A DNA stretch of 28,626 bases from assembly GCA_035563695.1 (NCBI GenBank), contig DATMUX010000750.1, forward strand, positions 1 through 28,626, given 5' to 3'. This DNA comes from Acidimicrobiia bacterium. Its GTDB lineage: Bacteria; Actinomycetota; Acidimicrobiia; IMCC26256; PALSA-610. Below the pieces are notes generated by a model. It saw only the letters and a list, made by a program, of their open reading frames with translations, was not told where the DNA came from and searched no databases. Position 1 is the stretch's first letter, and each line of letters opens with the position of its first letter. This document shows positions 9,364 through 14,145 of this stretch, one piece after another. The position numbers and the translations under genes are program-made.

Positions 9364-10992
9364 TCATCCCGAGCCCGACGCGGCGTCGACCTGCCAGACG
9401 GCGATGAAGGGTGATCGAAGGACGGGCGTGCCGACAGGTGGCGGTGGCGAGCTCCGTGACACGCTGCGCACCTCGAAGGTGGGCCCGTCGACGGGCTCCG
9501 AGGTGGAGCCCGAGTAGAGATCGATCCCGGGCACGAGGCGAAAGCGGTAACCGTCCTTGGCCAGAGCGAGCGCCACTGCGCCGGCGTCGAGGCCGCTCGC
9601 GCGGTCGCGCACCCCGAACACGGTGTCCCGGCTGGCGACCGCCTGCTCGATGGCGTGCGCGGCGAGGCGGGCCGAGGGTGAATCCCCGAAGGACACCGAC
9701 CGGCCCCGCAGCACGACCGTGTGCGACGCCGCGAGCGTGACGCCGATCAACACGGCGGCGCTGACCCATCCGGCCGCGACCGCGCGCCGCCCGGATCCCT
9801 CCCCCGCCGCGGCGAGGACCGCGAGCGCGCCGGCGCCGACGAGCGCCGGGATCCCGATCGTCTCGAGCCAACGAAGGAGATACGGAAGCAGCGGACCGAC
9901 GATCCGCGTCGTTGCCAGCTCCGCGACCAACAACCCGACCGGTGTCATCAGGCACAACACCGCCAGAAAACGGTTGCGTCGCCACCCGGCGATCGCTCCC
10001 CCGATGCCCAACACGACGAAGAGAGCGACCCACGCGTAACGCGTGTGGAGGTCGGCGACGCCGCGCGCCCGGCCGAGCGGCACCGCGGTCGCGACATCGC
10101 TGACCTGTACTGCCGCGTCGTGCAGCGAATGCGATGTCGCGCCGGCATCTCGAGGCGGGCTCGCGTAGAACCGGGCGATCTGCGTCAGGTTGCCGTCGTG
10201 ATTCGTCACCTGCTGATAGAGCGGCGGTAGCCACACGAGGAAGAGGAGCGCGGCGCCCGCGATCACGACGACGCGTTCCCGACGTGCGAAGCGAGGACGC
10301 CAGCCGCGCCCACCAAGGAACGCGACGACGGCGATCGCGACCGCGACCGCGCAGAGCGGAGCAGTACCGATGTGCGTCTGCACGAGATACGACGCCACAA
10401 GCCACGTTCCGACCAGCGCCGGAACGGACCCCGCTGCACTCGCGGCGACGCAGACGAACATCAGCAGCGCCGGCATCGCAAGCAGCGAAGGATTCCACGG
10501 ACTCGCGAGTTGATCGAAATGCAACGCGTGCACGATGAGCACGATCGCGATCACGGAAACGCGCGCCGCGAGCTCGCCGGCCATTCGACGCACGAGGAGC
10601 ACGATCAGCACCGCGCAACCCCAATTCAGGAACCAGCTCGACAGGAACAGGCTGCGCGATGCCTCGCCCGACAACCAATACGCCGGTGCCATCACCGCGA
10701 ACAGCAGCGATCCCGGATGGTGCCAGCCGAACCGCGAGTACGGTCCGAGCGCCGTACCGCCTCGCACCATCTGGCGCACCGCCAGCTCGATGAAGGCGAC
10801 GTCGCCGCCCGATGTGAACGGCCATCCGAGCGCACGAACCAGCTTGACGACGCCGAGCAGGCCGATCAGCCCGACCGCGAACAGCGAGAGCGGCAACGCC
10901 TCGATGCGACGGCCGACGCGGCCACGCCCGACCACGATCGGCTCCGAGGATCCCAAGTCCGCGGGTGGGGCCGCGTCGACGGCGTGCGTCAC
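9364..10992 (-). CDS. polytopic membrane protein, putative GT-C-fold glycosyltransferase
   Basis: Many hydrophobic segments. The first loop carries GGDVAFIEL...GPYSRFGWHHPG, followed by SPWNP and QTHIG, and there is a soluble C-terminal domain. GTGA overlap with the upstream ORF. Confidence 0.7.
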   Translation of the reverse strand: MTHAVDAAPPADLGSSEPIVVGRGRVGRRIEALPLSLFAVGLIGLLGVVKLVRALGWPFTSGGDVAFIELAVRQMVRGGTALGPYSRFGWHHPGSLLFAVMAPAYWLSGEASRSLFLSSWFLNWGCAVLIVLLVRRMAGELAARVSVIAIVLIVHALHFDQLASPWNPSLLAMPALLMFVCVAASAAGSVPALVGTWLVASYLVQTHIGTAPLCAVAVAIAVVAFLGGRGWRPRFARRERVVVIAGAALLFLVWLPPLYQQVTNHDGNLTQIARFYASPPRDAGATSHSLHDAAVQVSDVATAVPLGRARGVADLHTRYAWVALFVVLGIGGAIAGWRRNRFLAVLCLMTPVGLLVAELATTRIVGPLLPYLLRWLETIGIPALVGAGALAVLAAAGEGSGRRAVAAGWVSAAVLIGVTLAASHTVVLRGRSVSFGDSPSARLAAHAIEQAVASRDTVFGVRDRASGLDAGAVALALAKDGYRFRLVPGIDLYSGSTSEPVDGPTFEVRSVSRSSPPPPVGTPVLRSPFIAVWQVDAASGSG

Positions 10993-11219
10993 CCGTTCGA
11001 CGCCTCGACCGCCCGCGCCGTCCGATGCGGGCGATACCCGCGATTGCGCGCCTCGGCGAGCGATTGCGGAGCGATGGCCAGGAACGCCTCGGCCGACAGC
11101 AGGTCGTCGACCGCGGCAGTCACGGACGGATCGTGCCCGTAGAGGTCGAGGTCGTACACGATCATCGAGCGCTTGTCTCCGACGTAGCGAAAGTGCTCGA
11201 AGCGGATCGGGCGACTCAC
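10989..11219 (-). CDS. small hypothetical protein (76 aa)
   Basis: Start reassigned to GTG at 11219 (VSRPIRFEHFRYVGDKRSMIVYDLD...AEARNRGYRP). It has its own -10, and the longer ORF start at 11285 abuts an upstream terminator. Confidence 0.75.
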   Translation of the reverse strand: MSRPIRFEHFRYVGDKRSMIVYDLDLYGHDPSVTAAVDDLLSAEAFLAIAPQSLAEARNRGYRPHRTARAVEASNG

Positions 11220-11226
11220 GAGCAAG

Positions 11227-11232
11227 ACGTTA
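11227..11232 (-). promoter_or_regulatory. -10 element TAACGT, leaderless
   Basis: TAACGT, then 7 nt, then GTG at 11219. Confidence 0.5.
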
Positions 11233-11286
11233 CCGGCAGCCGCCGGAGCACCGGGCAACCGTTCACGTTCCGGGTCGCGGTGCACG

Positions 11287-11323
11287 AAAAGGAGATCGGG
11301 GGGCGCCTGAGCACCCCCCGATC
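11287..11323 (-). terminator. intrinsic terminator
   Basis: Minus strand GATCGGGGGGTGC-TCAG-GCGCCCCCCGATC forms a 13-bp stem with one U-G pair, followed by TCCTTTT. Confidence 0.8.
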
Positions 11324-11436
11324 ATTTCGACTGATTCGGACCCGTCGCGCCGTCACGTCGGTGGGACCATTTCCGACAGCTACGACGGTGGTGCGGCGGT
11401 TGACCTCCGCCAGGTGGTCCAGTCGAGTTCGACGGC

Positions 11437-11478
11437 CTAGCGGCCGCGCACCTCCGGGGTCCCAGGTTTATCGTGCAT
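11437..11478 (-). CDS. putative 13-aa small ORF MHDKPGTPEVRGR
   Basis: ATG...TAG, 9 nt downstream of GGAGGTG within a very strong Shine-Dalgarno-like tract. Translation is unproven. Confidence 0.35.
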   Translation of the reverse strand: MHDKPGTPEVRGR

Positions 11479-11511
11479 GTGCTGGACCACCTCCCTTCTC
11501 CGGTACCTACC

Positions 11512-11520
11512 GTTGTAGCA
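11512..11520 (-). promoter_or_regulatory. candidate extended -10 for the small RNA
   Basis: TGC-TACAAC on the minus strand. A 7-nt spacer places +1 at A11504. There is no recognisable -35, and the last base deviates from TAnnnT. Confidence 0.35.
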
Positions 11521-11568
11521 GATCGGGAACGAGCCTCGTGGCCGAAATGGCCGAGCGCCCGGATCCGC

Positions 11569-12027
11569 TCAGGACCCGAGCGGCGGGCGCGGCTCGTCGG
11601 GGCCCTGCGCTCTCGGCCCCACGGCACCGATCGCGCGGAGATAGGCCAGCTGCGTCTCGACGACGGCTCGCACCTGCTCGGGATCGTACGCCTCACCGGT
11701 CTCACCCGATCGAGCGCAGACATAGTCGACGGTCTCGGCCCCACCGACGACGACGTCACCGGGGGGATTCGCCGACGAGCCGTTGCCCGTAACGCCCTTG
11801 CGGGCGAAGAACTCGAGCTGGAACGCGAGAATCCGCCGCACGTCGTCCGGAGTCAGGGTGGCGGCGACCGCGTCGGGAACGTGCTCGACGACCCACTCGT
11901 AGGCCTCTTCGGGATCGAACACGGGAGGAGGCGGCTCCGCGGCCATCCGCGCCGCCTCCCGCATCACGAGCCAGGCCGCGATCGCACAGGCCACACCGAC
12001 CACCACCAACGCCGTCACCAGGAGCAC
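11569..12027 (-). CDS. hypothetical protein with an N-terminal transmembrane anchor
   Basis: 152 aa. A hydrophobic N-terminus (LLVTALVVVGVACAIAAWLV) precedes an acidic soluble domain. GC-rich coding-like codon use. Confidence 0.75.
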   Translation of the reverse strand: MLLVTALVVVGVACAIAAWLVMREAARMAAEPPPPVFDPEEAYEWVVEHVPDAVAATLTPDDVRRILAFQLEFFARKGVTGNGSSANPPGDVVVGGAETVDYVCARSGETGEAYDPEQVRAVVETQLAYLRAIGAVGPRAQGPDEPRPPLGS

Positions 12028-12033
12028 GTGCGC

Positions 12034-12039
12034 AACCTA
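12034..12039 (-). promoter_or_regulatory. -10 element TAGGTT (leaderless) overlapping the upstream stop codon
   Basis: TAGGTT, then 6 nt, then GTG at 12027. The TAG is the stop of the 12037-14145 gene. Confidence 0.5.
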
Positions 12040-14145
12040 CTGCTGCGGAGCGGTGGTCCCTTCGACCGGCGAGACCTCGAGCAGCCACGCGACAAGAGGT
12101 CGCGGCGCCGACCGCTGCGGCCGGTGGTCCATGACGCGCTCCGGTTCGTGTTCGTCGGCGATCTCGACATGCGTCACGACCTTCGCGTGGCCCCGGGCCG
12201 CGTTGAGGACGGCTCCGGGGCTCGACGTCACGACCATCAGGCGGCGACCGAGCCGGTGCCACGCAGTCGCAAGTGCGCCGATGTCGAAGTCGCCGTAGGT
12301 CCGGGGCTGCGCGACCGGGACGCCGCAGTACCCGCGCAGCGTTTGCGGCAACACCAGAGCGAGAGTCCCGTAGCCGTACACGAGTATCGCCGAGTCGTGA
12401 CCGGTCGCGGAGCAGAGCTCGCGCACCGCGGCCTGTGCACCATCCTGCATGCGCGCGTCGCGAAACGCGGCCGAACCCACGGCGCTCGGCGCCGAGATCG
12501 CGAGCGCGAGCGCGACCACGCCGACGCCGGCAACGGTCTTGACGGCGAGGCGCCTCGTGCGTGACAGCGTCGACCACAGCGCCGCAACGAAAGCCGCAGC
12601 GGCGATCGCGATGCCGGGCAGCACGACCGGGAGGAAACGGCGCATCGCCCAAGGCTGGTCGGGCGCGATGCTCGGCCGCGCAATGTACGCGATCGTCACT
12701 GGTGTCACGAGGAGCACCACGGCGGTCGCACCGCGGCGCCCGCGCACCGCAAGCCACCCGAGCACCACGAGACCGAGAAATGCGGCGATCACGGCGATCA
12801 GTCCGAAGTAGCTCGCGAACCAGTGCAGAGATCGACTCCAGTGCCATTGGTTGGTCGAATCACGCCACTGCGCCGTCGGGAGCTGACCGGGCGCAAGTTG
12901 CTGGAGATCGCGCGCGGGGTCGGGACGCCACACATAGGCCCAGACGAACGCGGCCGCCCCGATCAGCACCAAGAGCGCGAACACGTCCTTCCGTGCAGCC
13001 AGGGCGCGGCCGGTACCCGGACGCACCCGGTGCACCACAGCACCCGCGACGACCCCGGCGAGCGCCAGAACGATCAGCACCTCGACCAGCCGAATCTCGT
13101 CGGTGAAACTGTCGATGTACTCACGGCGCACGCCGTACATCAACCCGTACACGATGCCCGTGGTCGCGAGCAACGAGCCGGCGAACGCGACCACCACGCG
13201 CCGGCATCGAGCCGGCTCGACACCGTCGTCGCAACGGACCCACTCCACACCGGCGAACACGACGAGTCCGAGCACGATCGTGAACACATCGACTCGAGCG
13301 AACACTGCGGAGCCGATGACGGCTCCCGCAAGGGCCGCGAAGCCGGTTCTGCGTCGAGCGCGCGCCTCGAGATACAGCCATAACCCGCCGAGGACGACGA
13401 TCTGGACCACGAGCTCCGAGTAGGCGTCTCGAGAGAACCAGAGCTGCAACGGACTGATAACGAGCAACACGACGGCACCGAGCGCGTAGCGCGAACCGAT
13501 CGCTCGCGATGCGAGCGCATAGGCCGCGAGCACACCGATCGTCCCGAGCACAGCCGGGACCATCAGCATTCCGCCGTCCCCACCGATGGACCATCCGAGA
13601 GCGAGCAAGGCCGGGAGCATCGGGAAGAAGTTCATGCTCAAACGCCCGCGGGAGGTCTCGCCGAAGCCGGGCGCGGTGACGACGTATGACCGGTCGGCGA
13701 AGGGACCGCTCCGCACGAGGGGATCGAGCTCATGGGTGCGAGCAATCGAACGGCCTTCGTTGACGTACACGCCCGGATCGCGGTCCGTGAGCAAGTGCTC
13801 GGAGTGAAATCCCGCGGCGAGCGCCAGGAACCCTGCTGCGAGCACGATCGCGATGATCGCGGGCGTGGGCGACACCGGGCGGCGGCCGAGGCGCCGGGTC
13901 GCACCGTAGGCGGTCGCGGCGGCCGCGAGCAGCGCCGCCGTGAACGCGACGGCAGGCACGTAAACGTCCGCCATCAGCAGCACGACCGCGCCCGCGCCCG
14001 CGGTCGCGACGCCGACGATCGTTGCGGCCAAGCCGGCAACGAACCACGTCGGCAGCACTCGGTCGCTGAGCCGGGCCGCAGAAGGCGACACGCGCACGTC
14101 GTGTAACTCCGACACAACGGACGAGGAATCGGTCATCACCTGCAT
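12037..14145 (-). CDS. GT-C-like polytopic membrane glycosyltransferase, paralogue A
   Basis: TDRDPGVYVNEGRSIAR, MLPALLA, WFSRDAYSE, ARVD, APDQPWAMRRFL, with many TM segments. The start could also be 14139 or 14136. Confidence 0.75.
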   Translation of the reverse strand: MQVMTDSSSVVSELHDVRVSPSAARLSDRVLPTWFVAGLAATIVGVATAGAGAVVLLMADVYVPAVAFTAALLAAAATAYGATRRLGRRPVSPTPAIIAIVLAAGFLALAAGFHSEHLLTDRDPGVYVNEGRSIARTHELDPLVRSGPFADRSYVVTAPGFGETSRGRLSMNFFPMLPALLALGWSIGGDGGMLMVPAVLGTIGVLAAYALASRAIGSRYALGAVVLLVISPLQLWFSRDAYSELVVQIVVLGGLWLYLEARARRRTGFAALAGAVIGSAVFARVDVFTIVLGLVVFAGVEWVRCDDGVEPARCRRVVVAFAGSLLATTGIVYGLMYGVRREYIDSFTDEIRLVEVLIVLALAGVVAGAVVHRVRPGTGRALAARKDVFALLVLIGAAAFVWAYVWRPDPARDLQQLAPGQLPTAQWRDSTNQWHWSRSLHWFASYFGLIAVIAAFLGLVVLGWLAVRGRRGATAVVLLVTPVTIAYIARPSIAPDQPWAMRRFLPVVLPGIAIAAAAFVAALWSTLSRTRRLAVKTVAGVGVVALALAISAPSAVGSAAFRDARMQDGAQAAVRELCSATGHDSAILVYGYGTLALVLPQTLRGYCGVPVAQPRTYGDFDIGALATAWHRLGRRLMVVTSSPGAVLNAARGHAKVVTHVEIADEHEPERVMDHRPQRSAPRPLVAWLLEVSPVEGTTAPQQ

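Follow-up and report, generated by a model that had tools for sequence, protein, structure and literature searches.

The window studied here is a 28,626-nucleotide stretch of an Acidimicrobiia genome, and the locus of interest lies among genes that are read from its minus strand. On the upstream side is a gene for a 152-residue protein with an N-terminal membrane helix (11569-12027), which has no family annotation except a sub-threshold match to DUF7669. On the downstream side, directly past a predicted terminator, is a gene for a conserved protein of about 77 residues (RPIRFEHFRYVGDKRSMIVYDLDLYGHD...; 10989-11222) with no Pfam match. Large multi-pass membrane proteins, also on the minus strand, flank the locus at 9364-10992 and 12037-14145; the 702-residue flanking protein gives a borderline match to PMT_2 (GT-C mannosyltransferase-like), consistent with a glycosylation locus elsewhere in the window. 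Within the intergenic region we found a long complement of the 3' tail of 16S rRNA, followed by a small open reading frame (sORF) and a set of conserved helices, all on the minus strand.

An earlier, sequence-only reading of this DNA had singled out positions 11481-11499 for their likeness to the 16S tail. The plus strand there reads GCTGGACCACCTCCCTTCT and the minus-strand RNA (11499-11481) reads AGAAGGGAGGUGGUCCAGC. In five relatives, of which four belong to the same family and the fifth to the same order, the 16S gene finishes with GCGGCTGGATCACCTCCTTTCT; these tails served as the reference, the window's own 798-contig metagenome-assembled genome (MAG) being without an assembled 16S gene. 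Against them the claimed identity of 17/19 was confirmed. Both mismatches become G-U pairs on the minus-strand RNA, as had been proposed, and all 19 positions are pairable (17 Watson-Crick and two G-U). An anchored scan over the 3.86-Mb genome, on either strand, ranked 11481-11499 as the single best anti-16S site, with 19/19 pairable positions. The runners-up had 18 pairable positions (13 Watson-Crick) and then 16, and both fell within long open frames. As site counts drop approximately 2.4-fold with each added pair, a single genome is unlikely to contain a site of 19 pairs. Further long complements of the 16S tail (contigs C177, C747 and C689) fell inside long open frames or at the edge of a contig, had no sORF architecture, and were set aside. 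We nevertheless take the conservation of the tract in homologues, over its genome-wide rank, to be the decisive evidence.

The minus strand carries an extended -10 box, TGCTACAAC (TGnTACAAn; 11512-11520), which is conserved: TGnTA occurs 15-16 nt upstream of an invariant A in 110 of 132 homologues, where the commonest -10 hexamers are TACAAA, TACAAG and TACAAC. The invariant A (132/132 homologues), 7 nt past the -10 hexamer, is the predicted transcription start at 11504. A simple sigma-70 scan found no promoter at the locus, since a -35 box is missing and the hexamer does not have a T at its position 6. An intrinsic terminator hairpin of 13 pairs followed by TCCTTTTCGT (11294-11323, minus strand) is the sole terminator-like site in 11150-11650, where shuffled sequence is expected to yield 0.2. 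The predicted transcript is therefore about 215 nt long and runs on the minus strand from approximately 11504 to 11290. The proposed placement of the tract at nt 6-24 of this RNA is consistent with the predicted +1 A, and the conserved -10 box, +1 A and terminator together support the view that it stands at the start of a predicted small RNA with its own beginning and end. The choice of the minus strand as the RNA strand also agrees with the predicted features, since promoter, terminator, sORF and both covariance models described below lie there; for the same reason, a plus-strand transcript, or a plus-strand RNA mimicking the 16S tail, was rejected. Past the sORF, the minus strand holds in order a 16S-tail look-alike (CUGGACCACCU), two hairpins and the terminator. 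The tail that follows the terminator stem (11286-11294, minus strand; UCUCCUUUUC) resembles the 16S 3' terminus; beyond the window it was seen in only the two or three closest relatives.

Blastn recovered the 283-bp gap between two minus-strand genes from 33 of 41 relatives, with DNA identities of 73-88%; these relatives represent the majority of the order's families. At least 119 genome contigs carry the motif pair GGAGGTGGTCCA ... GGAGGTGCRCGG. One of these is a chance match, and among the motif-pair contigs listed nearly all are MAGs labelled Acidimicrobiia or Actinomycetota. From an alignment of 65 sequences of the window's order (A1) we built a covariance model, R1. Of 151 Acidimicrobiia genomes, 73 gave a single full-length match to this model, which also matched 66 of the 151 genomes of a phylum-wide sample; these tallies, like those for the Rfam model below, include four unpublished genomes (G174, G218, G256 and G285), whose use was confined to the counts. 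One genome of another class (G193) has two full-length copies, on contigs C17 and C126; every other genome has one. There was no R1 match in the sampled small genomes of 1.1-1.8 Mb. In families f25, f10 and f18, the element was found neither in the 35 sampled genomes from a genus of about 1.1 Mb nor in other small Acidimicrobiia genomes (1.5-2.5 Mb), and it may have been lost in streamlined lineages.

The sequence-only reading did not recognize the RNA as a named family and suggested a search of Rfam. Searched directly, the window bears this out: no family reached its gathering threshold anywhere in the window, and at E <= 10 the region 11100-11800 gave chance-level matches only (CC2171, EAV_LTH and ALIL). 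In particular, RF02471 (Ms_IGR-5) did not match the window's copy at E <= 10 in 11100-11800 or at the gathering threshold in the whole window, nor did it match in G000. The R1 model, however, ties the element to RF02471, which matches 43 of the 151 genomes of the phylum sample and does so at R1's coordinates in about 36 of them. The strongest co-located scores were 185.6 bits in G277, 175.9 bits in G238 and 84.8 bits in G264, compared with a gathering score of 45 bits; in G238, for instance, the R1 match spans 5201074-5201241 and the RF02471 match 5201054-5201239. In three Acidimicrobiia genomes (G053, G056 and G047) RF02471 scored 27-38 bits at coordinates shared with R1. Thus, the family is not without a name. 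Through this chain of models, the window's element appears to be a divergent branch of Ms_IGR-5 that lies below Rfam's own reach, and, as set out below, an analogue of the rre RNAs.

For the tract itself, the comparison covered 48 homologues outside the window's order, drawn from further orders and classes. Of the 768 cells at positions 1-16 (11499-11484), 767 were pairable with GGAUCACCUCCUUUCU, in a homologue set that leans towards tract-keeping copies since R1 and RF02471 both contain the tract. The only changes at these positions were A/G opposite U, plus one C/U opposite G. Complementarity beyond GGAGG is thus kept in relatives, the point on which the sequence-only reading had said it could fall. 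Its proposed reach into helix 45 fared differently. Positions 17-19 (11483-11481) were pairable in 39, 18 and 26 of the 48 homologues, which is near random, and they also varied among 117 pattern-matched homologues. The three extra bases, AGC, pair with 16S in this genome only, and the helix-45 part is therefore peculiar to it. What is conserved is a 16-nt complement of the free 16S tail (AGAAGGGAGGUGGUCC; 11484-11499, minus strand) with the family consensus AGAAAGGAGGUGRUCC. The window's copy makes 14 Watson-Crick and two G-U pairs over these positions, and the family consensus 15 and one. At position 13 the window has a G, where Streptomyces-like and some Mycobacterium-like genomes often have an A (these labels are inferred, from the strength of the RF02471 match among other things). 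Seven further loci detected by the Rfam model alone (Streptomyces-like, Mycobacterium-like and others) have the same tract, and five of them carry A at position 13, which gives a fully Watson-Crick complement. We read the 16 bases as complementary to the free tail of 15 nt together with the closing G of helix 45, which is in a U-G pair. On this reading, the conserved feature is a complement of the whole free tail and not an invasion of helix 45.

The sORF begins 11 nt past GGAGG and 5 nt past the conserved 16-nt tract, a GGAGG-to-ATG spacing greater than the usual optimum. It consists of 13 codons and a TAG (MHDKPGTPEVRGR; 11437-11478, minus strand). Within the order, insertions between the ATG and a conserved GGGAC are all of +3 nt (10 sequences, approximately five independent events), and indels in the spacer before the ATG are of 1-2 nt. 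GTG can stand in for the ATG, and the TAG gives way to TGA in four sequences and to TAA in one, in each case within the frame. Beyond the order, in other classes too, the frame has 12-15 codons, starts 8-12 nt past GGAGG with ATG, GTG or TTG (CTG in a few), and uses all three stop codons; two loci (L025 and L116) are without a standard start codon. The peptide end ...T-x-E-V-x-x-(R/C) is conserved across the phylum. Judged from these indels and from a frame kept across the phylum, the sORF evolves as a coding frame, which argues against a simply non-coding RNA.

A second GGAGGUG box lies inside the sORF (codons E-V; 11449-11455, minus strand) and is invariant in 65/65 sequences. Read from the sequence, it stands 11 nt before the stop codon, the same distance as separates the first GGAGG from the AUG. 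With the UAG in the A site, the second box would lie 8 nt upstream of the last sense codon in the P site, a geometry like that of initiation. It is a speculative thought that a terminating ribosome could re-pair its anti-Shine-Dalgarno sequence there.

RNAalifold on a plain MAFFT alignment gave no stable single nested fold, and helices were instead tested singly by counting pairs for each proposed helix in A1. Helix H1 joins the 5' strand CCGG (11500-11503) to 11454-11457; in A1 it pairs CCRG with a YYGG just before the second GGAGGUG, with 98.8% of cells paired and compensatory changes at two pairs (AU 45 / GC 15; GC 58 / AU 6), and it covaries further in other classes (CGCG, CGAG and CACA variants). 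Helix H7 joins the GGUGCG of the second GGAGGUG box to CGCACC at 11390-11395 (GGUGCR with YGCRCC in A1; 99.5% paired); it has one compensatory pair, and GGUGC/GCACC becomes GGUGG/CCACC in other orders. A third helix, entered in the same covariation count, pairs the internal look-alike of the 16S tail (11412-11422) with AGGUGGUCCAG in the tract (11482-11492). Its eight core pairs are 90-100% paired and its variation in A1 is all on the 3' strand and wobble-compatible, with one lineage (L173) showing a GAUCC/GGGUC compensation. Hairpin H6 (11357-11377) covaries at 5/5 stem pairs, and its loop GGUCCC (11362-11367) is complementary to the GGGACC of the sORF (11458-11463), a pseudoknot that is invariant apart from one covarying pair. 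All the features named here are on the minus strand. Taken together, the helices are 94.9% paired vs 91.0% in shuffles, with covariation of 0.178 vs 0.104, and none of 500 shuffles was as high.

H1 and H7 cross the helix between the Shine-Dalgarno region and the look-alike. Thus, the RNA is either pseudoknotted or alternates between two states. In partition-function folding of each homologue from +1, the AGAAA at the 5' end of the tract had mean unpaired probabilities of 0.46-0.95 in A1 and the following GGUGGUCC of 0.10-0.24; the same predicted pattern of an open AGAAA and a closed GGUGGUCC was repeated in A2 and A3, the class and phylum alignments. In the window's lineage, the modelled closing partner of GGUGGUCC is the internal copy of the 16S tail. 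The minimum-energy fold of the window's own sequence pairs the AGAAGGG seed with the 3' tail of the terminator. This pairing is not conserved beyond the nearest relatives and was rejected as the fold.

Three observations suggest that a partner in trans, the 16S tail, constrains the tract. First, the tract is invariant while its internal partners vary. Second, its open 5' part is conserved though it lies in no conserved helix. Third, the computed energy of the 16-nt duplex with the 16S tail is -27.5 kcal/mol, compared with -8.7 kcal/mol for GGAGG alone and -20.5 kcal/mol for the internal helix with the look-alike.

Ms_IGR-5 is itself an established RNA. It is a validated sRNA of M. smegmatis from the MSMEG_5794-5795 gap with an NAD-capped +1 A (bioRxiv 10.1101/2021.12.14.472595), it appears again in cold-stress transcriptomes (PMC10454040), it was validated by RNA-seq in S. 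lividans (PMC8079986), and it is a stand-alone sRNA unit with mapped starts and ends in S. avermitilis (PMC8780764). Its homologues have significant ribosome footprints in Ribo-seq of M. abscessus and M. smegmatis (PMC4974804). The available portions of this literature treat it as an uncharacterized non-coding sRNA and mention neither the 16S complement nor the sORF. Ms_IGR-5 and the window's element have in common the 5' sequence ACnnGRGAAAGGAGGUGRUCC, helix H1, a frame of 12-15 codons that carries ...T-x-E-V..., a helix of the GGUGR/YCACC type, a 3' hairpin whose loop has GUCC, and one copy per genome. Ms_IGR-5 is a stand-alone small transcript and so, by prediction, is the window's element. 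They differ in the frame: the window's order has an ATG start and 13 residues, whereas mycobacterial-type Ms_IGR-5 has 12 residues and mostly UUG starts.

The closest design outside the phylum is that of the rre RNAs, analogues of which have been reported only in Alphaproteobacteria (Hahn et al., RNA Biol 2016/17, PMC5711450). The rreB RNA of Bradyrhizobiaceae, a small mRNA of 165 nt, is complementary to the 16S tail over 17 nt and carries an sORF of 14 codons; all but five 5' bases of its tract are predicted to be paired. It co-sediments with 30S subunits, where it is mostly found, and is weakly translated, and a start-codon mutant is more stable (PMC5711450). The window's element resembles rreB and rreR in being, by prediction, a stand-alone small mRNA (about 215 nt here and 165 nt there), in the complement of the full free 16S tail (16 conserved nt here and 16-17 nt there), in the tiny sORF that follows the tract (13 codons here, 12-15 across the phylum, and 14-18 there), and in the predicted arrangement of open 5' tract bases as a seed with the rest locked in a helix. 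There are differences as well. In rre the complement has no imperfect position and its last base is the G of a GTG start codon, whereas that of the window includes G-U pairs (one or two) and stops 5 nt short of the ATG; only the window's element has the second invariant GGAGGUG 11 nt before the stop; and its covarying 3' domain is larger. We detected no sequence or peptide similarity to alphaproteobacterial rreB or rreR. The sole hint is RF01867, the Caulobacter sRNA CC2171, whose consensus starts with GAAAGGAGGUGAUCCAGUG, an anti-16S tract followed by GUG. It is the only Rfam model that touches the tract (15 bits vs a gathering score of 75; E = 0.91), and the likeness is limited to the tract and one hairpin. 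CC2171 is probably the Caulobacterales rre analogue mentioned in PMC5711450.

Based on these comparisons, we propose that the tract is the ribosome binding site of a mini-mRNA of about 215 nt, encoded once per genome and transcribed on its own, which is the Acidimicrobiia branch of Ms_IGR-5, and we consider this reading probable. By analogy with rreB, the 3'-terminal UCUUU of a 30S subunit would first pair with the open AGAAA(GG) seed. The rest of the tail would then displace the internal look-alike (approximately -27.5 vs -20.5 kcal/mol), and the resulting 16-bp duplex would tether the RNA to the subunit and slow clearance of the start site. The sORF would be translated, probably slowly, and its translation would be coupled to the fate of the RNA. 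These docking and translation steps are modelled on the 30S co-sedimentation, weak translation and stabler start-codon mutant of the Bradyrhizobium RNA. Of the functions put forward in the sequence-only reading, docking of the 30S subunit is the most plausible: rreB binds 30S (PMC5711450), and Ms_IGR-5 homologues are ribosome-protected in mycobacteria (PMC4974804).

It is possible instead, although we think it rather unlikely, that the product is the peptide, 12-15 residues with the C-terminal ...T-x-E-V-x-x-R/C, and that the masked giant Shine-Dalgarno sequence sets when and how much of it is made, for example when free 30S is abundant or when the mask is opened. The phylum-wide frame, the conserved T, E and V, and the use of all three stops agree with this, as does the Thr codon, whose third base varies among C, U and G, all synonymous. 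However, the N-terminal half of the peptide is variable. The conserved codons do not vary at synonymous sites either and fall inside H1, H7 and the pseudoknot, which means that constraint at the RNA level could account for the greater part of the peptide's conservation. Moreover, the peptides RreB and RreR are unstructured, and putative overproduction of RreB from a truncated construct gave no growth phenotype (PMC5711450).

The crossing helices could also be taken as two riboswitch-like states that expose or hide the docking tract in response to a ligand or signal, with two GGUCC boxes, two GGACC boxes, and H1/H7 versus the look-alike helix as the exclusive pairings. Each of the crossing helices is supported, the loops are invariant and the fold z-score is -4.66, but these helices are equally compatible with one pseudoknotted fold. 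As no ligand-related gene context was found, the neighbours differ between orders and Rfam gave no riboswitch match, we regard such a switch as improbable.

Still less credible, in our view, is a non-coding sponge, that is, an RNA that traps 30S subunits or acts on immature 16S 3' ends, as the sequence-only reading had also suggested, with the frame incidental. The stability of the 16-nt duplex is extreme and rreB is found mostly on 30S, as a sponge would have it. Yet a single gene copy per genome faces thousands of ribosomes, and 20-fold overexpression of 17c-rreB left growth unaffected (PMC5711450), which makes titration unlikely. Nor does the complementarity go further than the mature tail: it extends neither into helix 45 nor into the precursor. 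The frame, finally, does not behave as incidental: its insertions are all of +3 nt and its starts and stops are replaced only by other starts and stops.

The neighbouring genes bear on one last alternative. The 152-residue gene is directly upstream of the element in every relative of the order that was examined, but not beside homologues of another Acidimicrobiia order, of other classes or of a Mycobacterium-like genome, and the membrane protein was rejected as a functional partner because its adjacency is confined to the window's order. Of 20 relatives, 14 have the 77-residue gene beside the element (immediately downstream in 12, displaced by a further 0.8-1.2 kb in two), as does one genome from another order (G053); the gene is absent within 1.5 kb in the other six of the 20 and was not seen beside homologues of other classes. 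That the sORF and terminator form a ribosome-dependent attenuator of this gene, which is on the same strand and directly past the terminator, is very improbable, as so inconstant a neighbour argues against a dedicated leader and agrees with stand-alone transcripts in Streptomyces (PMC8780764) and likewise M. smegmatis (10.1101/2021.12.14.472595), and no alternative anti-terminator pairing was found.

Returning to the mini-mRNA, a catalogued actinobacterial sRNA family and the rre design were both already known, and the window's element is a divergent branch of the former. What is new, set against the available portions of the Ms_IGR-5 literature, is that Ms_IGR-5 across Actinomycetota, including the Mycobacterium and Streptomyces types, has a 16-nt complement of the full 16S tail and a frame of 12-15 codons. 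From its sequence features, Ms_IGR-5 has the look of a mini-mRNA that docks to ribosomes. With this, a phylum-wide RNA acquires a concrete hypothesis that is testable in M. smegmatis and S. coelicolor, and the rre design is extended well beyond Alphaproteobacteria. Whether Ms_IGR-5 and its relatives form, with the rre RNAs, one widespread functional class with full-tail 16S pairing as its working principle is a bolder idea, and we hold it to be doubtful. One possible role for such a class would be that of an mRNA dedicated to testing or parking ribosomes, which would signal the presence of free mature 30S subunits or retain them, possibly in quality control of the finished 16S 3' end or in entry into and exit from dormancy. 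If the class were real, the masked toehold and the second GGAGGUG before the stop would keep one ribosome cycling or parked, and mycobacteria and streptomycetes would carry an unrecognized ribosome-directed regulator.

Parts of the element are also present in public RNA data. Twenty-four public runs hold some of it, mostly RNA or putative-RNA libraries from soil, sediment and rhizosphere, and in four runs mapped at 80% likeness short contigs of relatives cover 11341-11522. In three of these runs the summed word depth reached 142, 57 and 13, compared with 0-11 on the flanking genes, for contigs that are strandless and come from relatives, and with a conserved core that recruits more organisms than its flanks do. 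In the fourth run, the upstream gene was covered at a level similar to that of the element. This coverage fits, weakly, with an abundant small RNA.
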